Source: an uncultured bacterium (GTDB lineage: Bacteria > Verrucomicrobiota > Verrucomicrobiia > Verrucomicrobiales > V1-33). Taken from it: a stretch of DNA of 64,000 nt. A program made the translations under genes and the position numbers. This document shows, in pieces, positions 34,975 through 55,474 of the stretch (position 1 is its first letter; each line of letters begins with the position of its first letter). The notes beneath the pieces are model-generated. The model saw only the letters and a list, made by a program, of their open reading frames with translations, did not search any database and was not told where the DNA came from. Where the stretch lies: NCBI GenBank assembly GCA_903936775.1, contig CAIZWU010000118.1, positions 7,952 to 71,951 of the forward strand, given 5' to 3'.

Positions 34975-34987
34975 GGACGGGTGAAGG

Positions 34988-37900: not shown

Positions 37901-40900
37901 GGGTTCCAGGGTGAAGGTGGTCCTGACAAAGCCTGATCTGCCGGCGGCCGTGAGGCCCGGCAACAGGTCCAGGACCTCGCCCAGGGTGCAGTCGAGGTGC
38001 TCCTGGGCGGCGAGGAACTGCTGACGGGTCAAGGCCAGCAGGGAAGTGGCGGTACTGCCTTCCGGGAGGGTGAGGCGGAGAGGCAGGAACTGCACACAAT
38101 GACCCACCAGACCAGGGTTTCCGCTGGCCGGTTGATTGGCCAGCGGCGTGCCGATCACCACATCATCCTGGCCGGTCAGGCGGCCGAGCAGACATTGCCA
38201 CGCAGTCAGGAAGGCCACGTAAGGAGTGACTTTGTTTGCCCGGCAGAAATTCCGCAGCCGTGCAGTGAGGGCGGCCGGCAGCGGTATTTCCAGGGAATCG
38301 GCATCGAGAGGAGTATCGGCCCGGCGCGGCAGATCGGCGGGCAATTCCAACGGCTGGGGCAGCGTGGCGAACTGACCGCGCCACCAGGCCCGGGCTTCTT
38401 CGAACTCACCACGGCTGGCCGCGTCCGTGCGGGTTTCGGCATACGCCGCATAGGACGGGGCCGGAGCCAATGCGGGCAGGGATTCGCCGCAGGCCGACCG
38501 GTAGAACAGGGGCAGCTCGTGCATCAGCACTCCGTAAGACCAGCCATCGCAGATGATATGGTGTGCCGTGAGGGTCAGACGGTGGCGGTCCGGGCCCAGC
38601 TTCAGCAGCAGGGCCCGCATCAAAGGGGGGCGGGCCAGATCGAAGGGAGTGAGGAACTCCCGGCGGCCGGCCTCCTCCCCCCGCCGCGAGGCCTCTTCCT
38701 CCGGGAGGCTGGAGAGATCTTCCTGCACCAGGGGCAGCGCGCCGCCGGGGCTGATCATCATTTGTCCGCCAGCGGCATCAAATCCGGTCCGCAGGGACTC
38801 ATGGCGGCGGGCCAGTTGCTGCAAGGCCGCTTCCAGGGCGGCGGGCTGCAACGGGCCGGAAAAATCCACCGTCAGCGACTCATGACACGCCAGGGAGGCC
38901 CCGGGACTCATGCGGGAAGCGAGGAACATTTCCTGCTGCGCGGGAATCAGCGGAGCGGTGACCGCTTCGGGATGCGGGAAAAAGCCACCCCGTTGGAGGG
39001 CGGAGATGCTGTCCGCGAAAGCCGTCAGGATTTCCTCCACGTCCTGCGCGGTGTGGGCGACGCTGAGGAAGCCGGGGCGTCCTTCCCAGAGGTGGATGCC
39101 GCGCAGGCGGAGGTGATAGTAGAGCAGGCCGGAGTATTTCAGGCCGGGGTCGGCATTCAGCATCCACATGCTGCTGAAGCGGGTCGATTTGAGGGGGACG
39201 CCGGTGGATTCGAAGAGGGCGTTGAGGCGGTCCACGAAGTCCCTCGTCTTGAGTTCCACCGCCTGCTGCAGGGTAGGCCCGATTTCCTTGAGTTTGAGGA
39301 GGACGGCACGGGCCGCGGCGAGGGTCAGGGGATGGCGGATGAAGGTGCCGGCGAAAAAGGTGACGCCCACTTCGGGCATGGAATCGTCGCCGTATTGCCA
39401 CGCTCCGCCATCGAGGGCATCCATGTATTTCCGCTGGCCGCAGATCACGCCCAGGGGCATGCCGCCGCCAATGATTTTGCCGTAGGCGACGAGGTCGGCC
39501 TGGATGCCGAAGTGAGCCTGCGCCCCGCCGGGGCCGGTGCGGAAACCCAGCACCACTTCATCGAAAACGAGGGCGGTGCCGGTGTCGCGGGTGATGGCGC
39601 GGAGCTTTTGGACAAAGTCGATCGGGACCACGTCCGGACGGCGGGACATCACGGGTTCCACCAGCACGCAGGCGATATCGTGGCCGTAGCGCTGCAGGAT
39701 TTCGAGGGATTCGGGATTGTCGTATTCGAGGACGAGGATACTGGCTTGCGCGAGGTCCGGAATGCCGGGCGCAATCGGGATGGAACGCAACTCGCCATTG
39801 ATGACGAGGGGACGGGCAAGGACTTCGTCGAAGATGCCGTGATACCCACCGGCGAACATGGCGATGATGTTGCGGCCGGAGATGGTGCGGCTGGTGCGGA
39901 TGGCGGCCATGAGGGCTTCCGATCCGGTATTGCAGAAGGCGACGCGTTCCTGGCCGCTGAACCCGCGGATGAGGTGGGCGACTTCGCCGGCCAGCGGTGA
40001 GGTGGGCCCGATCTCGAAGCCCAGATCGATCTGGGCGTGGAGGGCATCGGTGACGAATTTCGGACGGTGGCCGAAGAAGCCGAGGCCGAAGCCGTGGACG
40101 ACGTCGATCCAGCGGTGGCCGTCGGTGTCCCAGAGGTAGGCGCCTTCGCTGCGGTCGGTGACGGCGGGGAAGACCATGTCCTTCCACAGGAGATTGAATC
40201 CGGCGACGGCGCGGGGGTCGGCCAGGACGTCGCGGTGGTCGGCGGTGAAGGCTTTGGCTTTAGGGTATTTTGCGGTGTAAGCGGCGATGAGACCGGTGAG
40301 ATGCGCCTGCTGGAGGGGCGTGAGGCTGCCGTCCTTGGCGCGCTCAATGGGCTTGAAGGGGCCGAAGGCGATCTTCCTGCCGTCGCTGCCTTTGAGTGTT
40401 TTGACGGGGACGGTGTAGGCAGAGGCGGTGGGGCTGGAAGAAAAGGCACCGGGCTGGAGGCTGGTGCGGAGGGCGCTGATTTGTTGTTCAATAACAGCGA
40501 GGCGATCGGCGGTGGAGCCGGTGGCCGGGGTGGCGGAAAGCCCGGCCGCAGGGGGGCTGTTTTGAAGTGCTGGGGCAGGAGTGGCAGGCGGAAATTTGTC
40601 AGAGGGAAGTTGGGCGTCCAGCCAGGTGGCAAGATCGGCGATGCTGGCCTGGTCTTCCATCAGTTGGCGGAAGGTGATCTTGAGACCAAAGTGTTTTTTG
40701 AGGGAGTTGGAGGCGGAAGTCAGGAACAGGGAGTCGAAACCGAGGTCGAGGAAGGGCGTGGCGGGGTCGGCGGTGGCGGTGTCGATGCCGGAAATTTGGT
40801 GGAGTTGGGTGCGGAGTTCTTCAACAAGATGGGCATGGCGTGAAACGGCTGCGCTGATGGGAGCTTCCGAAACCAGGACCTCGGGAATTCCGGCGGCAGT

Positions 40901-43642
40901 GGCGCCTGGTGTGGGGACACTTGGCGGCGCGGCGGTGGTGCCGGTGGGGAGTTGGATCCACGCTTCGCCTTCGCGGGTGGTGCCGGCGGGCAGGATGGTG
41001 TCAGGGCAATAACGTTGGCGCTCGAAGGGGTAGCCGGGGAGGGGAAGGCGGCGGCGGCGGGTGTGGTGGTGGAAGGCGGGCCAGTCGAGCGTCAGGCCGT
41101 CGGTCCAGGCTTTGCCGAGGGATTGCAGGAAGGTGGGGTATTCGTTGGCTCCGGCATTCCTGGCGGGAGGGAGCAGCGGGAGCGAAGCCGTGCTGGCGGC
41201 GGCGGGATGTTGTTTGGCGAGGGGCGCGAGGGCGGTGCCGGGACCCACTTCAAGCAAAAGGGACGGGCCGGCCTGACAGAGTGTGGCAATACCATCGGCG
41301 AAGCGGACGGTGTGGCGGATGTGGCGGACGTAGTAGGCGGGATCGGTGGCCTCGGCTCCGGTGATGAATTCCCCCGTGAGATTTGAAATGTAAGGAAGCT
41401 GCGGCGGATGGAGCGTGATGGTGTCAACGGCCGCGCGGAAGGCTTCCAGCATGGGGTCCATCATGGCGCTGTGGAAGGCGTGGCTGGTGTGGAGCTTGCG
41501 GGCAGAGTGTCCGGCGGCTTCGAGCGTCAGGGCGAAGGCCTCGATGGCTTCGGCGGGTCCGGAGACGACGCTGAGACCCGGGGCATTGAGCGCGGCAACG
41601 TCCAACGTGGAAGGTAACAGGGGCAGGAGTCCGGCCTCAGGCAGACGGATGGCCAGCATGGAACCGGGGGCCATGGAGGCCATCAGGCGGCCACGGAGCG
41701 CGACCAGTTTGGTGGCGTCTTCGAGGGACATGACACCGGCGAGGGTGGCGGCAACGTATTCCCCGATGCTGTGGCCCAGCATGGCCGATGGTGTCAGACC
41801 GAAGGAGAGGAGCAGCTTGCCGAGGGCGTATTCGACCGCGAAAAGCGCGGGCTGGGTGAAACGGGTATCGTCGAGATCCGGGATGTTATGGAGATCGAGG
41901 TCCGCTTTGGCAAAACAAACGGCGCAGGCTTCGAAGGCCTCGCGGTAAGCGGGTTCGTGGGCGTAGAGTTCCTCGCCCATGCCAGGGTGTTGCGAGCCCT
42001 GGCCCGGGAAGAGGAAGACCACGGGGGGGGGCGGCGTGTCGGTGTGCGTTGACGGCGCGGGAGTGCGCAGTTGGGCGATGGCGTCCGGGATCGAGGCGAC
42101 CGCGAGGGCCCGGCGGTGGGGGAAGGCCTGCCGGCCGGTTTGCAGGGTCCAGGCAGTGTCCGCCAGGAGGGAATTCGGGATTTCAGATTTGAAATTTGAG
42201 AGGAGGGATTCGAGGTGGGTGGCGAGGTTGTCGCAGGCGGCAGTGAGGGCGGACGGGGTTTTGGCGGAGAGGACGAGGAGTTGGTGGGACCGGGTGGGGG
42301 TTTCGGAAGGAGCGGTGGCAGGGGCTTCCTCCAGCACGACGTGGGCATTGGTGCCGCCGACGCCAAAACTGCTGACGCCGGCGCGGAGGGGGGGGGCGCT
42401 GGTCCATGCCTGGAGTTTGTCGACAATGTAGAAGGGGCTGTCTTCCAGGTTCAGCGCGGGATTGGGACGCTTGAAGTGGAGAGTAGGGGGAAGTTGGCGG
42501 TGGTGGAGGGCCAGGGTGGTTTTGATGAGGCCTCCGATACCGGCGGCGGCGTCCATGTGGCCGGTGTTGGATTTGAGGGAGCCCAGGCCACAGAAGTTTT
42601 TGCGTCCGGTGCTCAGGCGGAAGGCCTGGGTAAGGCCGGCGACTTCGATAGGATCGCCGATGGGGGTGGCGGTGCCGTGGCCTTCGACGTAGGAAATGGT
42701 GTCAGGATCGATGTTGGCGAGCGCTTGGGCGAGGGCGATGACTTCGGCGTGGCCGTCGACGCTGGGGGCAGTGAAGCTGGCTTTTCCGCCGCCGTCATTG
42801 TTGAGGGCGGCGCCCTTGATGACAGCCCAGACGTGGTCGCCCTCCCGGACGGCGTCTTCGAGGCGCTTGAGGAGAACGACGCCGAGTCCATTGGAGAAGA
42901 CGGTGCCGCGGGAGTCGGCATCGTAGGGGCGGCAGTGGCCGTCCGGAGAGTAAAGACTGCCTTCCTGGGCGGTGTAGCCGCGGTGCTGCGGCCACTTGAC
43001 GCTGACGCCTCCGGCGAGGGCGGCGTCGCAGGCGTAGGATTGCAGGGCCTGGACGGCCTGGCAGACCGCCACGAGCGAGGTGGAGCACGCGGTGTAGATA
43101 TTCAGAGCCGGGCCGCGGAGGTTGAGTTTATAAGCCGTGCGGGTGGCGAGGTAGTCCTTTTCATTGGCGATCATGGTGCCCTCATAACCAAACTGGGCGC
43201 GGAGTTCCGCATTGGGCAGGATCTGGTGCTGGACCCACGAACTGTTGGACATGCCGGCGTAGACGCCGATGGCGCCGGGGTAACGGGAGGGGTCGCAGCC
43301 GGCGTCTTCGAGGGCGTGCTGGCAGGACTCGAGGAAGAGGCGCTGCTGGGGGTCGATGACTTCGGCTTCGCGCGGATTGATATTGAAGAAAGCGGCATCA
43401 AACCATTCAGGTTTTTCCAGGACCCCGCGGCGGGGGACGTAGTCAGGGTCGAGTTTGTTTTCCTCGGTGGGGATCTCTTCGACAGGGATGGTGGAGATGG
43501 TTTCGCGGCCGGCGGTGAGGTTTTCCCAGAAGGCGCTGAGGGTTTCCGCTCCGGGAAAACGCCCGGCCATGCCGACGATGGCGATGCCTTCGAGGGAGGG
43601 GGCGGCAGCTGGAGGGGACTGGGAGTCGGAGAAGCTGCTCAT
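34988..43642 (-). CDS. hybrid PKS-NRPS megasynthase: KS-AT-ACP-aminotransferase-C-A-T-TE
   Basis: 2884 aa from ATG 43642 (the track ORF extends to 43894 as Pro-rich read-through). Approximate domains follow. KS 42323-43594 (TACSTS, EGHGTAT, SNTGH). AT 41123-42022 (GHSIGE, HAFH). ACP 40613-40840 (LGFDS). Class-III PLP aminotransferase 38978-40345 (AFCNTGSEA, YGKIIGGGMP). C 37658-38959 (HHIICDGWS). A 36113-37585 (LIYTSGSTGLPKG, NGYGPTE, ANGKID; hand-read code DALWLGGTFK). T 35849-36070 (FFDTGGTS). TE 35018-35800 (GYSFGG, plus downstream Asp and His). Confidence 0.95.
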   Translation of the reverse strand: MSSFSDSQSPPAAAPSLEGIAIVGMAGRFPGAETLSAFWENLTAGRETISTIPVEEIPTEENKLDPDYVPRRGVLEKPEWFDAAFFNINPREAEVIDPQQRLFLESCQHALEDAGCDPSRYPGAIGVYAGMSNSSWVQHQILPNAELRAQFGYEGTMIANEKDYLATRTAYKLNLRGPALNIYTACSTSLVAVCQAVQALQSYACDAALAGGVSVKWPQHRGYTAQEGSLYSPDGHCRPYDADSRGTVFSNGLGVVLLKRLEDAVREGDHVWAVIKGAALNNDGGGKASFTAPSVDGHAEVIALAQALANIDPDTISYVEGHGTATPIGDPIEVAGLTQAFRLSTGRKNFCGLGSLKSNTGHMDAAAGIGGLIKTTLALHHRQLPPTLHFKRPNPALNLEDSPFYIVDKLQAWTSAPPLRAGVSSFGVGGTNAHVVLEEAPATAPSETPTRSHQLLVLSAKTPSALTAACDNLATHLESLLSNFKSEIPNSLLADTAWTLQTGRQAFPHRRALAVASIPDAIAQLRTPAPSTHTDTPPPPVVFLFPGQGSQHPGMGEELYAHEPAYREAFEACAVCFAKADLDLHNIPDLDDTRFTQPALFAVEYALGKLLLSFGLTPSAMLGHSIGEYVAATLAGVMSLEDATKLVALRGRLMASMAPGSMLAIRLPEAGLLPLLPSTLDVAALNAPGLSVVSGPAEAIEAFALTLEAAGHSARKLHTSHAFHSAMMDPMLEAFRAAVDTITLHPPQLPYISNLTGEFITGAEATDPAYYVRHIRHTVRFADGIATLCQAGPSLLLEVGPGTALAPLAKQHPAAASTASLPLLPPARNAGANEYPTFLQSLGKAWTDGLTLDWPAFHHHTRRRRLPLPGYPFERQRYCPDTILPAGTTREGEAWIQLPTGTTAAPPSVPTPGATAAGIPEVLVSEAPISAAVSRHAHLVEELRTQLHQISGIDTATADPATPFLDLGFDSLFLTSASNSLKKHFGLKITFRQLMEDQASIADLATWLDAQLPSDKFPPATPAPALQNSPPAAGLSATPATGSTADRLAVIEQQISALRTSLQPGAFSSSPTASAYTVPVKTLKGSDGRKIAFGPFKPIERAKDGSLTPLQQAHLTGLIAAYTAKYPKAKAFTADHRDVLADPRAVAGFNLLWKDMVFPAVTDRSEGAYLWDTDGHRWIDVVHGFGLGFFGHRPKFVTDALHAQIDLGFEIGPTSPLAGEVAHLIRGFSGQERVAFCNTGSEALMAAIRTSRTISGRNIIAMFAGGYHGIFDEVLARPLVINGELRSIPIAPGIPDLAQASILVLEYDNPESLEILQRYGHDIACVLVEPVMSRRPDVVPIDFVQKLRAITRDTGTALVFDEVVLGFRTGPGGAQAHFGIQADLVAYGKIIGGGMPLGVICGQRKYMDALDGGAWQYGDDSMPEVGVTFFAGTFIRHPLTLAAARAVLLKLKEIGPTLQQAVELKTRDFVDRLNALFESTGVPLKSTRFSSMWMLNADPGLKYSGLLYYHLRLRGIHLWEGRPGFLSVAHTAQDVEEILTAFADSISALQRGGFFPHPEAVTAPLIPAQQEMFLASRMSPGASLACHESLTVDFSGPLQPAALEAALQQLARRHESLRTGFDAAGGQMMISPGGALPLVQEDLSSLPEEEASRRGEEAGRREFLTPFDLARPPLMRALLLKLGPDRHRLTLTAHHIICDGWSYGVLMHELPLFYRSACGESLPALAPAPSYAAYAETRTDAASRGEFEEARAWWRGQFATLPQPLELPADLPRRADTPLDADSLEIPLPAALTARLRNFCRANKVTPYVAFLTAWQCLLGRLTGQDDVVIGTPLANQPASGNPGLVGHCVQFLPLRLTLPEGSTATSLLALTRQQFLAAQEHLDCTLGEVLDLLPGLTAAGRSGFVRTTFTLEPAAGPLDLGGGLHGEFQLNAKRRLGFDLSLFAFQTNEGFRLLCVYRNHLFHPSTVARWMQYYQVLLEGMIAAPATPVRQLPLLSAAQREEILTTFNDTGCPPPPPRTAAALFEEIAAVRPDQPAILQEDRVWTYRHLNTTANRIASILTANGVARGDRIAVYAGKSFELVAGLLGILKAGAAYVPVDPSYPKERVEFLLRDAGIRLVLTDSWHAPAVPGGIQTLLLEEAIQGEDRGNPNPGTGPEDIAYLIYTSGSTGLPKGNPVPHRGIVRLVRNTNYAVLDDQQTFLLAAALSFDASTLELWGPLLNGGRLALLPDGQMSLEAIGDAIRRHGVTTLWLTSGLFSMMVDERLDDLKSLRQLLAGGDVLSPAHVRKAMAALPETRIINGYGPTENTTFTCCHTLTPEDAASGIIPIGKPVAHTTVYVLDAEGQPAPPGVPGELWTGGEGLAPGYWNRPELTAKTFVRNPFSADPEATLYRTGDLVRWRVDGVLEFLGRIDTQVKIRGFRIEPGEVENILGRHLSVEKCCVAAVGETAAGKRLVAWVVVRPELPATPKTLREAVRQQLPEYMVPSVILLVDSLPVTANGKIDYRALPLPEASATPDKKWTPPQTATEIRLASLWQQVLGTNHIGPDTDFFDTGGTSLNGLRLIQKIRQDFSVTLPLGALFKSPTLSRLSEAIDHASANPLLRPAGDALACLQRGLDAPPLFLLHGGDGGALFYRALLPGLGPETPVYILESPALTDDDWLLARKNVEATAHHFITLMQTVQAEGPYRIGGYSFGGLVAYEMAQQLRATGQSTEHLILFDTENPGVGVRMLTLTERLAAGWRQGGQDFSGKVKGLGGRIGTGLKGKLNRDAEAAEARTLLDSGTAASGHLRIIQVRLTHIDAIQDYKVRPYPGSMVLLRSTAENDKYERLPDYGWGTAVASLQIRDVRGNHLELFDPENAGVLATQLRQALEGKVPARPFQLH
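42176..42204. repeat. AT-rich tandem-heptamer tract, copy 4 (ATTTCAG ATTTGAA ATTTGAG), in the KS-AT linker of the hybrid gene
   Basis: Plus strand cgggATTTCAGATTTGAAATTTGAGagga. It matches copy 1 at 28 of 29 nt but is translated in a different frame (LLSNFKSEIP). Confidence 0.8.
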
Positions 43643-43700
43643 GGGGAAAAGGACAAGATGGGCGGAAAGGCCGGAAGGGCTGAGGGGCTGAGGGGCGTGG

Positions 43701-46700
43701 TTAACGGCGGGCGGCGGCGGCCCGTTGGGCAGCGGCGCGGGCGGCGGCAGCGCGGGATGGGATGTCGTGGGCGGGCGGGGTGCCGGCCGGGGAGGGTGCC
43801 GGGGAAAGCCAGGCCGCAAGGGTGGCGATAGTGGGGTATTGGAAGAGGGCGGTGATGGGAAGGGGGCGGGCAAGTTCCTGACTGGTGGCGGCATGGACGC
43901 GGAGCATCAGAAGGGAGTGGCCGCCGAGGTCGAAGAAGTTGTCCATGGTGCTGATGCTGGTCAGGCCGAAGGCGCGCTGCCAGATGGCGGCGAGGCGTTG
44001 CTCCATGGGGGTGGACGGGGATTTGAAATTTGAAGTTTCAAGTTTGGGAGCGGCCGCGGGGGGAGAACACTGGGGGGGAAGCGGCAAGGCGGCGAGGTGT
44101 TGTGAGAGCGGTGCCCCGGGGTGGGTGGCGAAAGATTGAAGGAGGGTGGTGAAGGAAGCCACGATCTGCCGGGCGCGGGGGGCGGAGCAGGCGGCTTCCT
44201 GATAAACGAGGAGAAGATCCCAGGAGGCAGCGGAAGGGGTGACAACCACGGTGAGGGGGAAGTTGGTGTGGATGGGGCCGTCGAAATCTGAGAGGGTGGT
44301 CCGGGAGCCGAGTTGGGTGAGGGTCCCGTCGATTTGATAGTTCTGGAAGACGAGGAGGCTCTCAAAGAGGCGGAACCGCCACGGGACCGCGGAGCAGTCC
44401 TGGATGCGCGGGAGCGGGGTGGACTGGTGGGCGGCGAGATCGGTGAGGTGGTGGTGGACGCTGCGGAGGAAGTCGCTGGCGGGGAGGGCAGGATCGATTT
44501 TCGAGCGGACGGGGAGGTTATTGACGAAAGGTCCGGGGATGCGGTCGGCCCCGGGGAGGTCAGCCGGACGGCCGGAGAACGCCGAGCCGTGGACGACATC
44601 CTGGCTGCCGGCGGCGTGGGAGAGCAGGGCGGCCCAGGCGGCCTGGACGAGGACGCCGGGCGTGAGGCCGAGGCCGCGCGCGGCAGCCGTCAGGGAGGCG
44701 GAGGTTTCCGGGGAAAGGGTGGCGCGGGCTTCGGCCGTGCGCCGGGAAGTGCGGGGTCCGGGGAGGGCCTCGACCGGAATGGGGGTAGGAGCTTCAATCC
44801 CGGCCAGGGTGGCTTGCCAGAAGGGGTCGGAGCTGGCTTCGGGTTGGCGCTCCAGCCAAGCGAGGTAGTCACGGTAGGGCTGCGGGGACGGGAGGCCGGG
44901 GTTCCCTCCGGAGGTTAGCGCACGGTAGGTGGCAGCGGCTTCCGCGAAGACGACAGGCCAGGACCAGCCGTCAAGTTGGAGGCCGGGGACAGACCAGCAG
45001 AAGAAGTGATCCTCCGGGGAGAGGCGCATCAGGGTGAAACGGCCACAGGGCGCCTTGGTGAGGTCGTTGACGAGGGAGGCGTCCGAAGTGAGGAAATGAG
45101 TGATGCAGCCGGGACCACTGGATTCAAGGAAGTTGAATTCCGGGACCGCGGTGCGGTGCACCATCATGACGGCGTGCGGCAGGCCGGCACTGTGGAAGGT
45201 GGAGCGCAGGATGGTATGGCGTTGGACCACTTGGGCCCAGGCGGCCTGGAGCGCGGAGACGTCCAGCGGTCCGCCGATGCGGCAACACCATTGATCGAAG
45301 CCGGCGTTGGGTTTGGTGAGGGCGGCATGGTGGAACAGCCGCTGCATGGGGGAGAGGCGGCAGATGTCTTCCGGGCCCGGATGGGCGGCGAGGAGGGCAT
45401 CGAGGCTGGCCTGATCCAGGTGGGCGAGGGGAAAATCGGACGGCGTGCAGCGGGGAGTGGTGATGGTCAGGCAATGACCGATGACCTGATGGAGGGCGGT
45501 GAGGAAGGCTTCGGCGAAAGCCGTGAGGCTTTCCGGGGTGTGGGCCGGGGCAGCACTGGTGAAGGTAGTTTCCAGGCGGCTACCGATGACCATGGCGTTG
45601 ATTTCGGTGGCGTGGGCGCGGGTGGCGCGGGGGCTGTGCCAGGGGCCGGTGGATTCCGGGGCAAAGGAGAAGAGGGCACTGCCGGAAGTGAGGGCGTCGA
45701 ATTGCCCCAGGTAGTTGAAGACGAGGGTGGAGGAAGCGTTTTCAGTGGCTTGCCACTGATGGCTGGCGCCGTTGTCGGGGAGGGCGCGGAGGTGTTCTTT
45801 GATGAATGGAATAGCCTGGGCGGGGTCGGTTGACGGGACGGTGAGGTGGAGGGGGAAAAGGGCGGTGAACCAACCGATGGTGCGGTCCAACGGCAGGCCG
45901 GGCGCGAGGGTCTCTTCCCGGCCGTGACCTTCCAGATGCAGGGACAGGGTGGGGGCGGATGCCGTGGCCTGATGAGCCAGCGTCAGGGCTGTCAGCAGAA
46001 GGTCGTTGATGCGGGTGCGGTAGGCGGCGGGGGCGCGGTGGAGGAGGGCGGTGGTGTTGGCCTCGTCGAGGGCGACGGTGTGGGCAAAGGTGCCGGATTC
46101 GAGTGTTAGGTCAGCTTCCGGGACGGGCTGGATGGTGGACCAGTAATGGAGGCTTGGGCGGGCTTCCGGGGTGGTGGGCCAGTGGGCGAGTTGGCGGGCC
46201 CACTGCGGCCAGGTGGCGGTGGGGGCTGGGAGCGGCTGGCCGGTCAGGAGGGACTCGAGGTCTTCCAGAAGGATACGCCAGGACACGCCGTCGATGGCGA
46301 GGTGGTGGACGGCGAGGCAGAGGCGGCCGGGGCGGTCTTCGCCCGCGTCGAAGAGGGCGGCGCGGATGATCGGGCCGGTTTGGTGGTTGAGGGTGGTCTG
46401 CAGCTGGGCGCAGTGGGATTCCAAGCCGGTGAGATCCGGATAGGTGGTGAGGAGGTGGGCGGTTTCCTCCGGGGCGATGGAAGGCGTCCAAGTGTTGTTT
46501 TCCTGATGGAATCTCAGGCGCAGCGCGGGATGGCGGGCGGTGAGTTCACGGAGGACGCGGTGAAGGCATTCGGGATCGGGGCGGTCACTGAGGGTGAAGA
46601 GGAACGATTGGTTCCAGTGGTGGGAATCAGCTAGGTTTTGAGCGAAGAACCAGCGCTGGATGGGCGTGAGGGGGAAGGGGGCGGTGAGGTCGTCCGGGGA

Positions 46701-49700
46701 TGATTGAAGACTTGAGATATGAGATTGGAGCGGGGGCGCAACGCTGGCGAGAGAGGCGATCGTGGGGTGCTCGAAGAGTTGCCGCGGGGTGAGGGCGAGG
46801 CCGGCTTCGCGGGCCCGGGCGATGACTTGGATGGAAAGGATGGAATCGCCTCCGATCTCGAAAAAGTTGTCGGTGGTGCTGACGCGGTCGAGGCGGAGGA
46901 CCGCAGACCAGATGAGGGTCAGGACTGCCTCGGAGGGGGTGACGGGGGCTTGGAACGGGCGGGTGGTGGCGGGGCCGTCAGCGGCGGGCGCGGGGAGGGC
47001 CTTGCGGTCGAGTTTTCCGTTCGGAGTGATAGGAAACTTTTCCAGGAAGACGAAAGCGGCCGGGATCATGTAGTCCGGGACGCGGGTTTTGAGGAGGGCG
47101 CGGAGCTCATCCGGGGACGGTGGGTCGGCGGGGTCGGCAGGGACGAGGTAGGCGCAGAGGCGTTTGCCGCCGGGGCAGTCTTCGCGGGCGAGAACGGTGG
47201 CTTCCTCGACCGCGGGATGGGAAGTCAGGATATTTTCGATTTCACCCAGCTCGATGCGGAAGCCGCGGATTTTGACCTGGTGGTCGATGCGGCCGAGGTA
47301 TTCGATGTCGGGACTGGCGGCCCCGGGAATGAAGCGGGCTAGGTCGCCGGTTTTGTAGAGCCGCCCGTGGCCGGTCAGGTGGTTGGGGAGGAAACGGTCG
47401 GCGGTCAGTTCATCCCTCCGGAGGTAGCCGGTGGCGAGGCCAGCTCCGCCGACATACATCTCGCCGGGAACGCCGATGGGGACCGGTTGGCCATTGCCAG
47501 GATCGAGGATGTAGAGCTGGAGATCCGGGATGGGGATGCCGATGACGGAGCCACTCTCCAAATCCCGGGAGGACAGGGGGCGGTAGGTGACATGGACCGT
47601 CGTCTCCGTGATCCCATACATGTTGACGAGAACCGGGGCGGTGTCGCCGTGCCGGTCGAACCATGGTTTGAGGCTCTGCATTTCGAGGGCTTCGCCCCCG
47701 AAGATCACGTAGCGGAGGGACTGGGCCGGGAGGCCAGGATGGGTGGCGCGGGCGCGGGGTCCGGCCTGGATGAGTTGGCGGAAGGCGCTGGGGGTTTGGT
47801 TGAGGACGGTGACTTGTTCCTGACAGAGGAGGGCAAAGAACTCGTCAGGGCTGCGGCTGGTGAGCCAGGGGACGACGACAAGGCGGCCTCCGAAGAGGAG
47901 GGCGCCCCAGAGTTCCCAGACGCTGAAATCGAAGGCGGTGGAGTGGAAAAGGGTCCAAACGTCGTTTTCGTTGAAGCCATACCAGGGGTCGGTGGCTTTC
48001 ATGAGGCGGACCACGTTGCGGTGGGTGATCTGGCAGCCTTTGGGGAGGCCGGTGGAGCCGCTGGTGTATATGATGTAGGCCAGCGAGTCCGGGTCGGTGG
48101 GGATCCGGGATTTGAGATTTGAAATTTGAGAGGAAGCCGCGAAACCGATGTCTTCGATGAAGAGGGTAGTGGCGGGGTTTCCGGGGATTTTGGAGGCGAG
48201 GGGGCGCTCGGTCAGGAGGACGGGGGCCCGGGCGTCCTCCAGCATGAAGGCGAGGCGCGCGGGCGGGTAGGCGAGGTCGATCGGAAGGTAGGCGGCGCCG
48301 GCTTTGAGGATGCCGAGCAGTGACGCGATGAGCGGGGCGCGGCGGTCCATGCAGAGGCCGACGAAGTCACCAGGCTTGACGCCGGCGGTGATGAGAGCCT
48401 GGGCGACGAGGGTGGAGCGGCGGTCGAGTTCCGCGTAGGTCCAGGTGGCGTCTTCGGCGGTGACGGCGGTGCGGTTGGGATATTGCGCGGCGGTTTGGCT
48501 GAACCAGCCGTGGAGGGTGGTGTCCGAGTCAACCTGGGGGTCGGTGGGTTGCCAGTCCTGGAGGAGGAATTGGCGTTCGGCCGGAGTGATGAGGTGGAAC
48601 TTGGAAAGCGCGGTGGTCAGAGGGAGGGTGGCGAATTGCTCAAGGAGCTGGGCCATGTGGCCGAGGAGGCGTTGGATGGTTTCGTGGTCGAAGGTGGCGG
48701 GCTGATAGGCGCAATGGAGGCGGAGGGCGTGGGAGCCGTAAACGGCCAGGGTGAGGGGGACGCTGGTGAGTTCGTGGAGCTCGAAGGTGCGGTGGGCAAA
48801 GGCCGGTCCGCCGGTGGCGCGGAGCGTGTTGGTGTAGTCGTCGTTTTCGAAGACTAGGAGGTGGTTGAATGGAACCTGGGTGGCGCTGAGGCCGCAACTG
48901 CGGCGGATGAAGGAAAGCGGGGTCTGCTCGTGGGGACGGAGGTCGAGCCAGTGCTGGCGGAGCGACTGGAGGAGCGTGAGGAGGGGTTGGTTGGAGGGAA
49001 GATCGGCTTTGAGGGGGAGGGTGTTGATGAGGAGGCCGATGGTATTTTCCGAGTCCGGCACGGGAGTGTGGCGGCAGGCGCGGGTGGCTCCGAAAATGAT
49101 ACGGTCTTCCCCGGCGTAACGGCCCAGCAGGAGCGCGAAGGCCGCTTGGACAAAAGTATTTAACGTGAAGCCATGGGTGGCGGCGAGGTGGCGCAGGGTG
49201 GCAGTCAGGGAAGCGGGAAAGTGGAGATCGGCTTCTGCCTGGGGGGAGCGGGAGGAAACAGAATCAGCCGCGCCTGCAGGACTGGGACGGTGATTGGCGA
49301 TGGGCCTGATGACGTGATCGACGATCAGGGGGGTGGGGCCGGTGATGCCGCTGAGGTGGGACTGCCAGAAAGGAATGGAGGGCGTGTGGTCGAGCGAGGC
49401 TTGCCAGCGATTGTGGGATTGGAAGGACGGGCGGGATGGAGGGGGTTCCTGTGAGGGAATGTCGTAGCGGGAGAAGACTTCCTGGAGCAGGGCGGTGATG
49501 GCCCTGCCGTCGATCAGAATGTGATGGAACGTCCAGATGAGATGGTAATGCTCTGGCGACTGGCGGATAAGGGTGAGGCGTTGCAGGGGGCCTGCGGTCA
49601 GGTGAAGAGGGGTGGTGCGGTCATTTTCGAGGAAAGCGGCGACATCTGAGGAGTCCAGTTCTTGCCAGGGAACGGGGAGGGTATCGTGGACGGTGGCGGC

Positions 49701-49916
49701 TTCGGCGGTGAAGGTGGTGCGGAGAATGGGGTGGGCCGCGGCGAGGGCTTCCCATGCGGCGCGGAGGCGGGGGGCCTCAATGCTTTCCGGGAGGGTGCAG
49801 ACCATTTGCTCGACGTCGATCCCTGCGGCCGGGTCCTGGAGCCACGTAAAGTACATGCCCTGCTGCAGCGGGGTCAGCGGCAGGGGTGTTTCAGGCGCAG
49901 GCAGGGGGGCGCTCAT
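43701..49916 (-). CDS. non-ribosomal peptide synthetase: C-A(Thr)-T-E-C*-T
   Basis: 2071 aa. Approximate domains follow. C 48582-49889 (HHILIDG). A 46992-48524 (AYIIYTSGSTGLPKG, FDFSVWE, NMYGITETTVH, PNGKLD; hand-read code DFWNIGMVHK). T 46737-46949 (FFEIGGDS). E 45417-46685 (PLTPIQRWFF, HHLAIDG). C* 44082-45374 (all core motifs present except that HHxxxDG reads PGLQLDG at 44967-44987). T 43797-44015 (FFDLGGHS). Confidence 0.95.
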   Translation of the reverse strand: MSAPLPAPETPLPLTPLQQGMYFTWLQDPAAGIDVEQMVCTLPESIEAPRLRAAWEALAAAHPILRTTFTAEAATVHDTLPVPWQELDSSDVAAFLENDRTTPLHLTAGPLQRLTLIRQSPEHYHLIWTFHHILIDGRAITALLQEVFSRYDIPSQEPPPSRPSFQSHNRWQASLDHTPSIPFWQSHLSGITGPTPLIVDHVIRPIANHRPSPAGAADSVSSRSPQAEADLHFPASLTATLRHLAATHGFTLNTFVQAAFALLLGRYAGEDRIIFGATRACRHTPVPDSENTIGLLINTLPLKADLPSNQPLLTLLQSLRQHWLDLRPHEQTPLSFIRRSCGLSATQVPFNHLLVFENDDYTNTLRATGGPAFAHRTFELHELTSVPLTLAVYGSHALRLHCAYQPATFDHETIQRLLGHMAQLLEQFATLPLTTALSKFHLITPAERQFLLQDWQPTDPQVDSDTTLHGWFSQTAAQYPNRTAVTAEDATWTYAELDRRSTLVAQALITAGVKPGDFVGLCMDRRAPLIASLLGILKAGAAYLPIDLAYPPARLAFMLEDARAPVLLTERPLASKIPGNPATTLFIEDIGFAASSQISNLKSRIPTDPDSLAYIIYTSGSTGLPKGCQITHRNVVRLMKATDPWYGFNENDVWTLFHSTAFDFSVWELWGALLFGGRLVVVPWLTSRSPDEFFALLCQEQVTVLNQTPSAFRQLIQAGPRARATHPGLPAQSLRYVIFGGEALEMQSLKPWFDRHGDTAPVLVNMYGITETTVHVTYRPLSSRDLESGSVIGIPIPDLQLYILDPGNGQPVPIGVPGEMYVGGAGLATGYLRRDELTADRFLPNHLTGHGRLYKTGDLARFIPGAASPDIEYLGRIDHQVKIRGFRIELGEIENILTSHPAVEEATVLAREDCPGGKRLCAYLVPADPADPPSPDELRALLKTRVPDYMIPAAFVFLEKFPITPNGKLDRKALPAPAADGPATTRPFQAPVTPSEAVLTLIWSAVLRLDRVSTTDNFFEIGGDSILSIQVIARAREAGLALTPRQLFEHPTIASLASVAPPLQSHISSLQSSPDDLTAPFPLTPIQRWFFAQNLADSHHWNQSFLFTLSDRPDPECLHRVLRELTARHPALRLRFHQENNTWTPSIAPEETAHLLTTYPDLTGLESHCAQLQTTLNHQTGPIIRAALFDAGEDRPGRLCLAVHHLAIDGVSWRILLEDLESLLTGQPLPAPTATWPQWARQLAHWPTTPEARPSLHYWSTIQPVPEADLTLESGTFAHTVALDEANTTALLHRAPAAYRTRINDLLLTALTLAHQATASAPTLSLHLEGHGREETLAPGLPLDRTIGWFTALFPLHLTVPSTDPAQAIPFIKEHLRALPDNGASHQWQATENASSTLVFNYLGQFDALTSGSALFSFAPESTGPWHSPRATRAHATEINAMVIGSRLETTFTSAAPAHTPESLTAFAEAFLTALHQVIGHCLTITTPRCTPSDFPLAHLDQASLDALLAAHPGPEDICRLSPMQRLFHHAALTKPNAGFDQWCCRIGGPLDVSALQAAWAQVVQRHTILRSTFHSAGLPHAVMMVHRTAVPEFNFLESSGPGCITHFLTSDASLVNDLTKAPCGRFTLMRLSPEDHFFCWSVPGLQLDGWSWPVVFAEAAATYRALTSGGNPGLPSPQPYRDYLAWLERQPEASSDPFWQATLAGIEAPTPIPVEALPGPRTSRRTAEARATLSPETSASLTAAARGLGLTPGVLVQAAWAALLSHAAGSQDVVHGSAFSGRPADLPGADRIPGPFVNNLPVRSKIDPALPASDFLRSVHHHLTDLAAHQSTPLPRIQDCSAVPWRFRLFESLLVFQNYQIDGTLTQLGSRTTLSDFDGPIHTNFPLTVVVTPSAASWDLLLVYQEAACSAPRARQIVASFTTLLQSFATHPGAPLSQHLAALPLPPQCSPPAAAPKLETSNFKSPSTPMEQRLAAIWQRAFGLTSISTMDNFFDLGGHSLLMLRVHAATSQELARPLPITALFQYPTIATLAAWLSPAPSPAGTPPAHDIPSRAAAARAAAQRAAAARR
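44017..44049. repeat. tandem-heptamer tract, copy 3 (ATTTGAA ATTTGAA GTTTCAA GTTTGGG), in the C*-T linker
   Basis: Plus strand ggggATTTGAAATTTGAAGTTTCAAGTTTGGGa. It encodes PKLETSNFKSP. Confidence 0.7.
46703..46730. repeat. degenerate tandem-heptamer tract, copy 2 (ATTGAAG ACTTGAG ATATGAG ATTGGAG), in the T-E linker
   Basis: It is preceded by gggg, like the other copies, and encodes LQSHISSLQS. Confidence 0.55.
48106..48134. repeat. AT-rich tandem-heptamer tract, copy 1 (ATTTGAG ATTTGAA ATTTGAG), inside the NRPS A domain
   Basis: Plus strand cgggATTTGAGATTTGAAATTTGAGagga. It encodes SSQISNLKSR in the variable loop before the AYIIYTSGSTG core motif. Confidence 0.8.
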
Positions 49917-50698
49917 GCGGGGAAGAGATCGGTGCGGCGGTCGCGCAAGGCAGGGAATTGAGCGCGCCAGGCAGCGGTGGTTTCGGCGGAAATGGTGGTG
50001 CGGAGGAGGGTGGGGGCGGAACCCGCTTCGGTGACGACTTCACCGTGGGGATCGATGATGGCGCTGGCTCCGGCGTAGTGGAAATGGGGGTCGGAACCGC
50101 AGCGGTTGAGGCCGAGCACGAAGGCTTGGTTCTCGATGGCGCGGGCGCGGAGCAGGATGGTTTTATGCTGCTGGCGGCGGTCGGGCCAGTTGGCGATGAC
50201 GCAGAAGAGGTCGGCCCCGGCGCCGGTGGCGGCGCGGAAAAGTTCCGGGAAGCGGAGGTCGTAGCAGATGACGGGAGCGACCGTGAAGCCGTTCCACGGG
50301 AAGGTGACGATTTCCGAGCCCGCAGTGAAGGCCTGGGCTTCGCCAGCCGGGGAGAAGGAGTGGATCTTCCGGTAGCGGGCGAGGAGGGAGCCGTCGGGGG
50401 AGAAGGCGAGGGCCTCGTTGGCTCCGGTCCCGTCAGGAAGCTGCCGGGACAGGCCACCCAGGACGTAAATCCGGTGCTGGCGGGCGAGGCTGGCGAGGAA
50501 GCTTTCCGTCTCGGCGGCGGGAGTGTCGGCGGCTTGCGACACGTTCATGCTGAAGCCACTGGAGAACATTTCGGGCAGTACCAAGAGCGAGCCGGGGGCA
50601 AGGGCAGGGCGGGCGGAGTCCAGAGCCTGCGAGACGGTGGTAAAGTTCGCCGAACGGTCCTCCCAAGCGATGTCGAATTGAAGGGCACAAAGTTCCAT
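49913..50698 (-). CDS. carbon-nitrogen hydrolase, omega-amidase (YafV/Nit2)-like
   Basis: Trimmed to ATG 50698 (MELCALQFDIAWED). Nitrilase-superfamily Glu-Lys-Cys triad contexts: LVLPEMF, YRKIHSF and APVICYDLRFPE. Also ANWP and RARAIENQAFV. By eye it is collinear with E. coli YafV. Its stop overlaps the NRPS start (ATGA at 49913-49916). Confidence 0.8.
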   Translation of the reverse strand: MELCALQFDIAWEDRSANFTTVSQALDSARPALAPGSLLVLPEMFSSGFSMNVSQAADTPAAETESFLASLARQHRIYVLGGLSRQLPDGTGANEALAFSPDGSLLARYRKIHSFSPAGEAQAFTAGSEIVTFPWNGFTVAPVICYDLRFPELFRAATGAGADLFCVIANWPDRRQQHKTILLRARAIENQAFVLGLNRCGSDPHFHYAGASAIIDPHGEVVTEAGSAPTLLRTTISAETTAAWRAQFPALRDRRTDLFPA

Positions 50699-50982
50699 GG
50701 GACAAAAGGCAGTAAATTCTAAAAAATATACTGAATACAGTAAATCCAAAACACTCCATTTGCAAGAAATATTACAAACCTTAATAACCAATCAAAATTG
50801 ATCTAAACGGTTGGGCGGCCCTGCGGTTCGCGTCGGGTTCAGGGAGAAGAATGTGTCCGCGGTGAGAAAATATGGGCAGGTATAAAAAAGACGGAAAGAT
50901 TGATTATAATTCTAAAAATACTGGAAAAAACCAAAGGATCGTTTATACTTTACGGCAATTACCCGATTTATTTGCAATTTCC
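50699..50982. promoter_or_regulatory. AT-rich divergent intergenic (promoter) region between the NRPS/PKS operon and the polysaccharide-export operon
   Basis: This is the lowest-GC stretch in the neighbourhood. It lies between divergent starts at 50698 (minus) and 50983 (plus; the track allows 50872). It contains a direct repeat AATTCTAAAAA(TA)TACTG at 50715-50733 and 50908-50923. Confidence 0.45.
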
Positions 50983-52602
50983 ATGCTGTTTTATGAGCCC
51001 GAAAGCCTCCCCATCCGGAGCCTCCTGCACAAAGTCCTGTTGGGGGCGCTTTCGGCTGGGTTGATGCTGCTACGGTTGCCAGCCCAAAGTGTGCTGGTGG
51101 AGGACGATCGGGCGCCGCTGATAGTCGGTGATGATCCCGCTCCCGTGGCAGCCCCAGCCCCGGTAAATCCCCCGACCGACCCGGGCATCGGAGTCGAAGA
51201 GACTAAAAAGGCGATTCTGGGCGAGTCGGTGTTATGGGATCAAACCATTCCAACGGAGGAGTTGCGGGTGGCCAGCATCCCCGGGGAACCTGAAATCGGC
51301 GCGCTGCTCCCCTCAGGGAGTGTTGATCGCCCGGCAGGAACTCCTCCCTTGGTGGATGCGGGGGTGGGGGAGAAAAAGGCACTCCGGCCGCCGATCACGG
51401 GAAGTGCCCCTTTTGCCTCTGAGACGAAGAGTGGGAGTGGACCGGTGGTGATGGGCACGGATCTGGAGCCCAACGTGGCGGTGACAGCCCTTGCTCCGGA
51501 ACAGACGCCCCCGGAAATGCTGGACGCCCCCTTGGTGGAGTCAGCGGATCCGTGGGTTTTCCGGGTGGAGCAGATTTCGGTTTATGACGACAATATTGAG
51601 CTGAGCAACCGGGGGAAACAGGCCGATTTTGTGTTCATGCTGCGGGCCTCGGTGGCTTGGCAGCGGGGCGATCTGGAGCGCCGGCGCGGCTCGTGGGCGA
51701 GAGTCTTTTACGAAGCCACCGGTTCCGTTTTTGTGGACCGGAGCGATGAGAACAGCCTCGACCACGACCTTCAAGCCGGCGGACAGCGGCGCTGGGGGGA
51801 TCTGGCGACCGCCTTGGAAGGACGCTACCGCTACCTGAGCGGAGCCACGCCGGACCTTGGGGACCGGGTGCAGCGCCAGGAATATGAAGCCAAGCTGAGT
51901 GCCGCCTACGATCTGAGCGGGCGTACTTTTGTGGAGGCCGGGGCCGGGTGGAATGGGATCGACTACCAGGACGCCGTCTATGCTGATTTTGAGGAATGGA
52001 CGGTCGAAGGCTTTGCCGGGTATGAATTGTCAGGCCGCACGAAGCTCGCAGCGGGAGCTGCGGTTGGCCAGCTCAAGGTGAAGGGAACGGCCCCACAGGA
52101 CTACCAGCAGGCCCTCGTGAAAGTGACCCGGGCCACTACCGGGGCGCTGGGGCTGACCGGCCGGGCCGGGGCCGAGTTCCGTCAGATGGAGCGGGGAGAT
52201 GAGGTCACTCCGGTTTTTGCCCTGACAGCAGATTGGGAACCGATTGCGGATGGCACCCGGGTCACGGCAGAAGGTTTCCGCGAAACGGTCGCGTCGGGGT
52301 CGCTGGGCGGGGAAACCTATCTGCGGACCGGGGGCGCGCTGCGTATTCTACAGCAGCTGGGCAACCGGTTGGCGGTTGGGTTCGAGACGGGTTATGAACA
52401 GTTGGCCTACACGGAAATTTCCGATGGGGCGGGGGCGGGACGCACTGACGATTATTTCTTTGCCCGGCCCAGTTTGAAATATGAATTCAATGCCCGCCGC
52501 CGGGCGGAGCTGTTCTATCATTTCCGTGAGGACGAATCCACCTCGGATGACTTTAGTTTTACGGCCAACCAGTGGGGCCTGTCCTTCGGCCTCGATTTCT
52601 GA
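50983..52602 (+). CDS. outer-membrane beta-barrel protein associated with the polysaccharide export locus
   Basis: Start uncertain: 50872 in the track; ATG 50983 gives signal-like LLHKVLLGALSAGLMLLRLPAQS. The C-terminal half has alternating-hydrophobic beta-strand patterning, and the terminus FGLDF ends in Phe, as in OM beta-barrels. Confidence 0.5.
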   Translation: MLFYEPESLPIRSLLHKVLLGALSAGLMLLRLPAQSVLVEDDRAPLIVGDDPAPVAAPAPVNPPTDPGIGVEETKKAILGESVLWDQTIPTEELRVASIPGEPEIGALLPSGSVDRPAGTPPLVDAGVGEKKALRPPITGSAPFASETKSGSGPVVMGTDLEPNVAVTALAPEQTPPEMLDAPLVESADPWVFRVEQISVYDDNIELSNRGKQADFVFMLRASVAWQRGDLERRRGSWARVFYEATGSVFVDRSDENSLDHDLQAGGQRRWGDLATALEGRYRYLSGATPDLGDRVQRQEYEAKLSAAYDLSGRTFVEAGAGWNGIDYQDAVYADFEEWTVEGFAGYELSGRTKLAAGAAVGQLKVKGTAPQDYQQALVKVTRATTGALGLTGRAGAEFRQMERGDEVTPVFALTADWEPIADGTRVTAEGFRETVASGSLGGETYLRTGGALRILQQLGNRLAVGFETGYEQLAYTEISDGAGAGRTDDYFFARPSLKYEFNARRRAELFYHFREDESTSDDFSFTANQWGLSFGLDF

Positions 52603-52607
52603 AACCC

Positions 52608-53189: not shown

Positions 53190-53203
53190 CTTTTTCACAA
53201 AAA

Positions 53204-55450: not shown

Positions 55451-55474
55451 CTCTTATCCCCCTGCCTCCCTGCT

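Follow-up and report, generated by a model that had tools for sequence, protein, structure and literature searches.

Organization of the locus

P0001 is an open reading frame (ORF) of 2071 amino acids (aa) that is predicted to encode a nonribosomal peptide synthetase (NRPS) in an uncultured bacterium of the Verrucomicrobiales. It is located in a 64,000 nucleotide (nt) stretch of contig CAIZWU010000118.1 (positions 7,952 to 71,951), which is termed the window here. The gene belongs to a four-gene operon on the minus strand, together with genes for a C-N hydrolase, a hybrid polyketide synthase (PKS)-NRPS and an Sfp-type phosphopantetheinyl transferase (PPTase) (Table 1). Analysis of the P0001 aa sequence by Pfam shows three Condensation stretches, a single AMP-binding domain at positions 472–968 and two PP-binding stretches. 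The domain order is condensation, adenylation, carrier, epimerization, condensation and carrier, i.e. C-A-T1-E-C′-T2, where the second condensation domain is termed C′.

C′ does not have the two histidines of the HHxxxDG active-site motif. A preliminary description of the window had read the motif as PGLQLDG, and translation bears this out at aa positions 1644–1650. The other core motifs it quoted could all be placed: LSPMQRLFHH at 1521–1530, RHTILRSTF at 1566–1574, YRDYLAWL at 1681–1688 and PGPFVNNLPVR at 1794–1804. C′ is preceded by an E domain with intact HHLAIDG, EGHGRE and FNYLGQ motifs, as had been reported, and is followed by an apparently intact T2 with FFDLGGHS at positions 1994–2001 (nt 43914–43937). 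No A domain lies between C′ and T2, since the single AMP-binding domain of P0001 is that of A1, and Pfam confirms that the next protein, the hybrid, begins with a ketosynthase (KS) domain. The view that this is a non-canonical module without an A domain, placed at the junction of NRPS and PKS, is thus supported.

Table 1. Genes, domains and motifs of the NRPS-PKS operon, with nt positions in the window
Feature	Position	Strand	Evidence or remark
C-N hydrolase (omega-amidase-like), first gene of the operon	49913–50791	−	PF00795, 5e-40
NRPS gene P0001, 2071 aa, C-A-T1-E-C′-T2	43701–49916	−	Translation without internal stops; Pfam
N-terminal C domain, aa 12–452, canonical FHHILIDG	48561–49883	−	Pfam, motif
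A1 adenylation domain, aa 472–968, Thr-type pocket signature	47013–48503	−	PF00501/PF13193
T1 carrier domain, aa 999–1057, FFEIGGDS	46746–46922	−	Pfam, motif
E (epimerization) domain, about aa 1080–1500	45417–46679	−	HHLAIDG at aa 1204–1210, EGHGRE, FNYLGQ
C′, DCL-type condensation domain by descent, aa 1515–1960, without HH pair	44037–45374	−	PF00668
PGLQLDG in place of HHxxxDG, aa 1644–1650	44967–44987	−	Translation
End of latch strand and following loop, F1878-D-G-P-I-H1883-T1884	44265–44285	−	H1883 codon at 44268–44270
T2 carrier domain, aa 1978–2050	43767–43985	−	Second PP-binding stretch; phosphopantetheine serine S2001 at 43914–43916
Basic Ala/Arg-rich C-terminal tail after T2	43704–43766	−	R2055, A2056 and A2062 at least 95% conserved
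Hybrid PKS-NRPS gene, KS-AT-T-aminotransferase-C-A-T-TE	34988–43642	−	Pfam, motifs
Sfp-type phosphopantetheinyl transferase, last gene of the operon	34312–35241	−	PF01648, PF22624

Ancestry and fold of C′

C′ displays the Condensation domain fold, a CAT-like pseudo-dimer (PF00668), by Pfam, by structural model and by fold matches. The solved sequences nearest to it are PvdL E2-C3 (E-value 5e-61), McyB (7e-55), BacC (bacitracin synthetase 3), SrfA-C and TycB, and its matches to DCL domains span 5e-61 to 4e-36. The glycopeptide X domain (8e-21) and the dehydrating CmodAA domain of AmbE (7R9X; 2e-18) score far behind the DCL domains, and structures of Cy (heterocyclization) domains match weakly (Irp2, 1.4e-06). 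The DxxxxD and Asp-Thr dyad motifs of Cy domains are not present in C′, which has the C-type sequences LSPMQ and RHxILR instead.

An AlphaFold2 (AF2) model of C′-T2 was made from a 36-sequence alignment and has a predicted local distance difference test score (pLDDT) of 87.7 and a predicted template modelling score (pTM) of 0.86. The top fold neighbours of C′ are TycB, PvdL C3 and the C domain of SrfA-C (target template modelling score 0.87, root mean square deviation 3.0 Å). In the same ranking the X domain is 33rd and AmbE CmodAA is 43rd. The best sequence matches and the best fold matches in the PDB are therefore all to DCL domains, and C′ stands directly after an intact E domain. Sequence and model agree in marking C′ as a DCL-type condensation domain by descent, an ancestry that fits its position behind the E domain. 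Domains of the DCL type come after an E domain and take only donors in the D configuration. A subtype placement had been called for in the preliminary description; by the PDB matches C′ falls with the DCL and not with the X-like domains.

The resemblance to canonical DCL domains (PvdL C3, SrfA-C, TycB and McyB C1) includes the position after E and the C1, C2, C4, C5 and FQN motifs. Unlike these, C′ has both histidines replaced, is fused directly to a carrier with no A domain following, and displays a clade-specific histidine after the latch that is described below. The canonical HHxxxDG sequence with its second His, a feature of the class, is not found in C′.

Homologues and phylogeny of C′

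The best 120 matches to P0001 in a large protein collection were taken as the homologue sample, and 119 of them could be aligned over C′-T2. Nearly all have a chain length of about 2100 aa and the C-A-T-E-C-T order. The HH pair is absent in 94 of the 119, which read PA (51), PD (16), PS (10), PG (8), PE (4) or singletons at the two positions, and it is kept in 25. Homologues of C-A-T-E-C-T order with the sequence P-[A/D/S/G/E]xxxDGWSWP number 93, and the clade consensus is WSVP[ADSGE][LM]xLDGWSWP.

The His-less sequence is also found close to the window. A genome of the same genus (G301, 91% identity) has the identical motif, WSVPGLQLDGWSWP, and eight more relatives of the same family read P-D or P-E at the two HH positions. 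The C′-T2 region is present in 6 of 11 genomes of the genus, counting the window's own, and in several other genera of the family. A phylum-wide genome search was positive in none of 300 other genomes, and outside the window's own family the cluster is patchy. A search of genome contigs, keyed on the generic carrier-domain pattern NFFDLG, gave mostly unrelated NRPSs and only two loci that are clearly of the same type. These are a His-less one in a metagenome-assembled genome (MAG) of the Verrucomicrobiales (L004, 65% identical) and an HH-bearing one in a MAG of the Alphaproteobacteria (L005, 37% identical). A full-length match in a Gaiellaceae MAG (L068) has a translation that is interrupted by a stop. 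A search of representative proteins was dominated by giant multimodular NRPSs because of summed scores and is uninformative on family size.

The preliminary description had allowed for a read or assembly error at the motif. Such an error is ruled out, as independent genomes share the His-less motif, and for the same reason resequencing would not restore HH. The more general proposal, that C′-T2 is either an error or a vestigial module that the chain skips, has nothing in its favor but the lack of the HH pair and of an A domain. It has to contend with the identical motif in an independent genome, the His-less motif in 93 homologues, and the conservation data given in the next section.

For a maximum-likelihood tree of the C and C′ domains, canonical DCL domains served as outgroups and the two columns of the HH pair were masked. 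The 93 His-less members of the family form one clade, which is nested in a grade of HH-bearing domains of the same architecture. The node that joins the His-less clade to the nearest HH group has a support of 0.97. This topology points to one loss of the HH pair followed by long retention.

Two His-less loci (L001 and L002) have KS-AT-T-aminotransferase, then C-A-T and TE partner proteins after the NRPS, and an HH-bearing locus (L003) has them as three proteins. The downstream domain set and the PPTase accompany all three loci alike. The four-gene operon is compact and is found again among Verrucomicrobiota, Acidobacteriota and further lineages from soil.

Conservation of C′ and T2

Members of the His-less clade share a mean pairwise identity of 0.54 over C′, 0.55 over E and 0.54 over the first C domain; in the HH grade the value is 0.46 over the C domain and likewise over E. 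The ratio of nonsynonymous to synonymous substitution rates (dN/dS), determined for the window sequence against five relatives, is 0.18–0.29 for C′, 0.16–0.26 for E and 0.24–0.39 for T2, the C′ values being judged no higher than those of E. The phosphopantetheine serine of T2 is invariant in the 119 homologues. Across the His-less and the HH groups alike, conservation reaches 95% or more in 64 columns of C′-T2. These include R1566-H1567 (C2), D1649-G1650-W-S-W-P, Y1681 (C4), G1795, N1799 and R1804 (C5), F-Q-N-Y at 1857–1860, and T1884.

By these sequence measures selection on C′ has not been relaxed after loss of the HH pair, C′ and T2 have stayed under purifying selection equal to that on the remainder of the synthetase, and the pattern of conservation is not that of a domain in decay or of one with a purely structural role. 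A decaying pseudo-domain is rejected on the identities and dN/dS values found domain by domain. Together with the invariant T2 serine, the conserved C-terminal tail and the uninterrupted ORF, this leaves the skipped-module or error proposal effectively refuted. The tail after T2 contains a predicted helix (positions 543–561 in model numbering) of low pLDDT, and is probably a docking helix towards the KS protein.

Comparison with other His-less C-like domains

Atypical C domains are a known theme, e.g. X, I, CmodAA, Cy and CT domains. P450 Oxy enzymes are recruited by the X domain, the tunnels of which are closed. The preliminary description had drawn an analogy between C′ and the glycopeptide X domain (teicoplanin Tcp12; PDB 4TX2 and 4TX3). 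The two do share the C fold, the absence of the catalytic His pair and the absence of an A domain after them. However, the X domain is located between the last T domain and the TE, while C′ is between E and T2, ahead of a KS, and has kept its tunnel motifs. No P450 was found among the neighbouring ORFs that were scanned around the window operon. The analogy is not supported, since C′ is DCL-type by sequence and by fold, has kept its other active-site motifs, and has no tailoring enzyme in its operon.

The I domains of beta-hydroxylase-dependent NRPSs are also atypical C-like domains. They work with alpha-ketoglutarate hydroxylases, and comparison of gene context shows none in the window operon. 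The C domain of MxgE has a Pro in place of His (PMC13638107). The CmodAA-T2 part of AmbE, in the AMB pathway, resembles C′-T2 in that an atypical C-like domain is followed by a T2 that has no A domain and is loaded by another A domain. C′ is a remote match to CmodAA and falls outside of the CmodAA clade.

These cases raise the proposal that C′ is non-catalytic, i.e. an X- or I-domain-like docking platform for a trans enzyme or for the KS protein, with the chain reaching the KS otherwise. Both histidines are gone from C′, and His-less C-like domains that recruit other proteins are known (X domain, 4TX2 and 4TX3; I domains, PMC13638107). Genes for Cupin_8/JmjC hydroxylases are also found beside homologous NRPSs in L002 and L003. 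We consider the proposal distinctly unlikely. Both the sequence and the fold of C′ place it far nearer to working DCL domains than to either the X domain or AmbE, and its remaining tunnel and active-site motifs show at least 95% conservation. An oxygenase that could be recruited is not encoded in the window operon, the accessory genes of which are those for the amidase and the PPTase. The Cupin_8 genes stand beside the HH-bearing version in L003 as well and thus do not track loss of the histidines. Further, if C′ moved nothing, the T1-bound chain would be without a route to the invariant T2.

The positions of these oxygenase genes are 7644–9936 in L002, where the cluster is Acidobacteria-type and His-less, and 25518–26288 in L003, and in both they flank the NRPS. 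No Cupin_8/JmjC oxygenase gene was detected in the window operon.

Residue changes that accompany loss of the HH pair

The first His of the motif (H1644 position) is replaced by Pro, which is 97% conserved in the His-less clade. The second (H1645 position) is replaced by a variable small or acidic residue, and A, D, S, G, E, C and P are seen. A column-by-column comparison of the groups shows three further positions, at the end of the latch strand and in the following loop, that are highly conserved in the His-less clade, F1878 (100%), G1880 (90%) and H1883 (99%). H1883 occurs in 0% of the HH-bearing relatives, where the position is taken by R, E, T, S or A, and R, Q, T, A or G are found there in the canonical outgroups. 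The clade comparison brought up no new candidate among Asp, Glu, Lys, Cys or Ser residues, so that H1883, F1878 and G1880 are the only compensating candidates. On the evidence of the alignments, HH was replaced by P-x in one ancestor and H1883 became fixed within the loop that comes after the latch strand.

In the AF2 model H1883 is residue 374, in the loop that follows strand 365–370 and precedes strand 379–385. The latch is situated above the HHxxxDG motif (PMC11546977). The 1.94 Å structure of HMWP2-Cy2 shows a metal site shared by the Q1855 backbone and N1621, where N1621 is at the second-His position of DxxxxD, and T1856 "in the latch" lines the active site and faces the catalytic dyad (PMC9547227). 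Alignment on the conserved Thr (Q-T-P in Cy, H-T-N in C′) sets H1883 at the Q1855 position. We infer from this analogy that H1883 adjoins the position of the old catalytic His.

Absence of an A domain before T2

C′-T2 is a C-type domain and a carrier without an A domain of their own, directly after a module that does have one, and this holds for P0001 and all relatives checked. No A domain precedes T2 in any of about 120 relatives, the HH-bearing ones included. It appears that, in this family, an adenylation domain was at no time part of C′-T2. Longer members of the family still end in C-A-T-E-C-T, whether or not the last C domain has HH, and have an extra loading unit in front. Among P0081, P0011 and P0018 this unit is a stretch of about 690 aa at the N terminus that includes an additional carrier domain (P0081, FkbH-like according to one source), an A-T or a C-A-T.

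In the relatives with front units the N-terminal C domain takes carrier-bound donors. The window version has no such unit and therefore, as far as domain content shows, its N-terminal C domain must use a donor that is supplied in trans.

The A1 pocket motifs FDFSVWE, LNQTP and NMYGITETTVH are identical to those of the Thr-activating Thr1 (PDB 5N9W) and are kept in about 95% of both the His-less and the HH groups. A1 is thus plausibly Thr-type and the chain plausibly Thr-derived. The preliminary description had spoken of a D-Thr chain, of which the Thr origin can be upheld as plausible.

No NRPS-type A domain was found in the window's genome besides A1 and A2, the two of the operon, the assembly being 95% complete in 405 contigs. 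The remaining AMP-binding matches in the genome comprise an acetyl-CoA synthetase, a ligase of 944 aa that has no carrier domain, and an Aas-type fusion of MFS, acyltransferase and ligase parts. The fusion is in the window at 14738–17746 on the minus strand. It has 1002 aa, combines an MFS transporter with acyltransferase and AMP-binding domains, is of the LplT-Aas type of lysophospholipid recycling and is not an NRPS A domain.

The T2 of AmbE is loaded by AmbB, and T2 of P0001 might likewise be charged in trans, either by A2 of the hybrid protein or by an enzyme from outside of the cluster, in which case C′ would add a different building block. A2 is at hand in the next protein, and PCP3 of HMWP1 is charged by the A domain of HMWP2 (PMC9547227). 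The genome has no stand-alone NRPS-type A domain, its remaining AMP-binding matches being those named above, although in an assembly of this completeness the absence of an extra A domain is not proven. Trans loading of T2 is very unlikely in our estimate. By analogy with the system described next, A1 probably loads both T1 and T2.

Proposed function of C′-T2

The closest known arrangement is that of HMWP2 (Irp2) of the yersiniabactin synthetase, in which the domains are ordered ArCP-Cy1-A(E)-PCP1-Cy2-PCP2 and which is followed by HMWP1, a protein that starts with a KS (PMC9547227). One A domain loads both PCP1 and PCP2 in cis, the epimerase yields a mixture, and Cy2, which has no HH, condenses and is expected to set the stereochemistry at the NRPS-PKS junction (PMC9547227). 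Here again an epimerizing module with an A domain is followed by an HH-free domain of the C superfamily and a carrier, both without an A domain, and these form the NRPS half of the junction with a PKS. There are also differences. Cy2 heterocyclizes Cys by means of DxxxxD and an Asp-Thr dyad, while C′ is DCL-type, reads P-x-x-x-x-D-G and presumably handles Thr. The epimerase of HMWP2 is embedded in the A domain, while the E domain of P0001 is free-standing between T1 and C′. Double loading is established for HMWP2 but is an analogy in the case of P0001.

With HMWP2 as the model, C′-T2 could well be a working second module without its own A domain, in which C′ condenses the chain onto Thr-T2. 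This is the reading we favor, tentatively. A1 would load Thr onto T1 and also onto T2, as the A domain of HMWP2 does for PCP1 and PCP2. The N-terminal C domain would then acylate Thr-S-T1 and the E domain would epimerize the product. C′ would bind the D-epimer at its donor site and join acyl-D-allo-Thr to the amine of Thr-S-T2, working without the classical His through positioning of the substrates and possibly with H1883 in the old role. T2 and its conserved basic tail would dock on the hybrid protein and pass the chain to the KS. The chain would next undergo extension with malonate, transamination at the beta carbon, addition of one more amino acid and release by the TE. C′-T2 would thus also screen the chain for its stereochemistry on the way from the E domain to the KS, which is unable to tell the L from the D form.

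C′ has to move the chain from T1 to T2, because the chain must reach the KS and because T2 is invariant and has a conserved tail. Amide formation is possible without the classical His, because Cy domains condense without HH, because activity is not lost in every case when the second His is mutated (PMC11546977), and because HQxxxDG domains exist. For these reasons, and on account of the conserved His gained beside the old site, the step from "His-less" to "non-condensing" that was made in the preliminary description is unsafe.

The HQxxxDG sequence (second His changed to Gln) was seen in 9 of about 257 motifs scanned. It occurs in in-line, DCL-like C domains of multimodular NRPSs, with several per protein in P0127, P0142, P0260 and P0245, i.e. 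the second His is naturally lost in modules that must condense.

Several observations weigh against condensation by C′ and loading by A1. Mutation of the second His abolishes condensation in several of the C domains that have been studied, and free variation at the second-His position of the clade fits a site that is no longer doing chemistry. The placement of H1883 depends on motif homology to a Cy domain and on secondary structure. PvdL C3 has a His at the position equivalent to 1883 alongside its HH pair, so that a His there need not be catalytic and by itself is no proof of catalysis. The His-less clade itself has a support of only 0.35 in the tree. Loading of T2 by A1 is deduced from precedent and from the lack of another A domain, and with E and C′ both in between, A1 would have a longer way to T2 than the A domain of HMWP2 has to its second carrier.

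The same arrangement can be read in another way. T2 may not be aminoacylated, and C′ may move the D-epimer chain from T1 to the free thiol of the T2 phosphopantetheine by transthioesterification. A thiol nucleophile needs no general base, so that the HH pair could be lost, and only D-configured acyl-Thr would reach the KS. This would agree with the lack of an A domain for T2 in about 120 relatives and of a spare NRPS-type A domain in the genome, and with the location of a DCL-type domain directly after an active E domain and directly before a KS. The products of E domains are L/D mixtures, from which the downstream DCL domain picks the D form (PMC11546977). Free variation at the second-His position is equally well explained, and the conservation of C′ and T2 fits transthioesterification as well as it fits condensation. 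However, no precedent for carrier-to-carrier thiol transfer by a C domain was found in the literature searched, and the canonical motif is kept in the HH-bearing relatives of the same architecture, a sign that the ancestral reaction was ordinary amide formation. Also, to our knowledge every characterized C-T unit without an A domain is aminoacylated by another A domain, e.g. that of HMWP2. Transthioesterification therefore seems unlikely to us, and condensation onto Thr-T2 is still preferred.

As to the general nature of the unit, C′-T2 quite probably functions in chain transfer, as opposed to being an error, a relic or nothing more than a scaffold. The sequence comparisons show the layout without an A domain and without the HH pair to be a real and inherited one, on which selection acts in about a hundred related clusters, and for that reason it appears to be a working variant and not a broken copy.

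Significance of the His-less clade

The role of the second His of HHxxxDG is an unresolved question of NRPS enzymology (PMC11546977). The family described here amounts to a natural experiment, in which about a hundred diverged synthetases lost the HH pair once, kept the remainder of the domain under selection and fixed a new His nearby. The HH-bearing relatives of identical architecture can be used as controls. The size and age of the clade, these controls, and the correlated gain of a His beside the old site are the points of interest.

It is possible, though we regard it as rather doubtful, that the clade represents the first natural relocation of a catalytic or positioning His, from the N-lobe, where it was part of the HHxxxDG loop, to H1883 in the post-latch loop of the C-lobe, in a domain that still makes peptide bonds, or else a D-specific carrier-to-carrier thiol relay between E and KS. 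Either would be a new catalytic solution or a new function for the C-domain superfamily and would bear on the debate about the second His. His-less C domains are routinely called "inactive" in genome mining, and the answer for C′-T2 is of relevance there as well as for the engineering of NRPS-PKS junctions. A literature search for the cluster family, its architecture, its product and the His-less DCL clade gave no description of any of these, within incomplete coverage.

Other features of the operon and its surroundings

The stop codon of the C-N hydrolase gene overlaps the start of P0001, and L001 has the same gene ahead of its NRPS. The FFEIGGDS sequence of T1 is the form that is typical for a T domain ahead of an E domain. 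The HH pair of the E domain is kept in 111 of 111 aligned homologues.

The KS of the hybrid protein displays a Cys-His-His triad (TACSTS, EGHGTA, KSNTGH), the AT is of the malonyl type (HAFH) and the aminotransferase is class III. The longest ORF of the hybrid begins at 43894 and overlaps the 3′ end of the NRPS gene by 194 nt. The frame is Pro-rich in this part (43643–43894), and the KS begins at about residue 102 of the long ORF. The true start is most likely the ATG at 43642 (MSSFSDSQ...), which is 58 nt past the NRPS stop.

Polysaccharide genes are often found beside the operon, in distant genomes as well. Genes for a porin-like barrel, Wza/Wzc-like proteins and a WbaP-type sugar transferase are present in the window (50872–56971) and in L001 (3204–8972). 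In L002 (1–3108) and L003 (64–8863), genes for DegT aminotransferase, glycosyltransferases and FemAB-like proteins are beside the NRPS-PKS cluster. The product of the operon may be linked to a surface glycan or lipid.

The GC skew of the plus strand is +0.30 to +0.39 across both megasynthase genes (40001–50000) and is near zero elsewhere in the window. The minus strand, which is the coding strand, is strongly C-rich over the same interval, and this fits proteins rich in Pro, Ala, Leu and His. A tandem AT-rich heptamer, AACTTCAAATTTCAAATC on the coding strand, occurs in frame at 44020–44037 (the C′-T2 linker), 42179–42196 and 48109–48126. The heptamers are located in inter-domain or loop regions of both megasynthase genes and give the peptides ...SNFKS and SNLKS... 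The 11-mer GATTTGAAATT, with up to two mismatches, has 19 occurrences in the window where 10.8 are expected from shuffled sequences.

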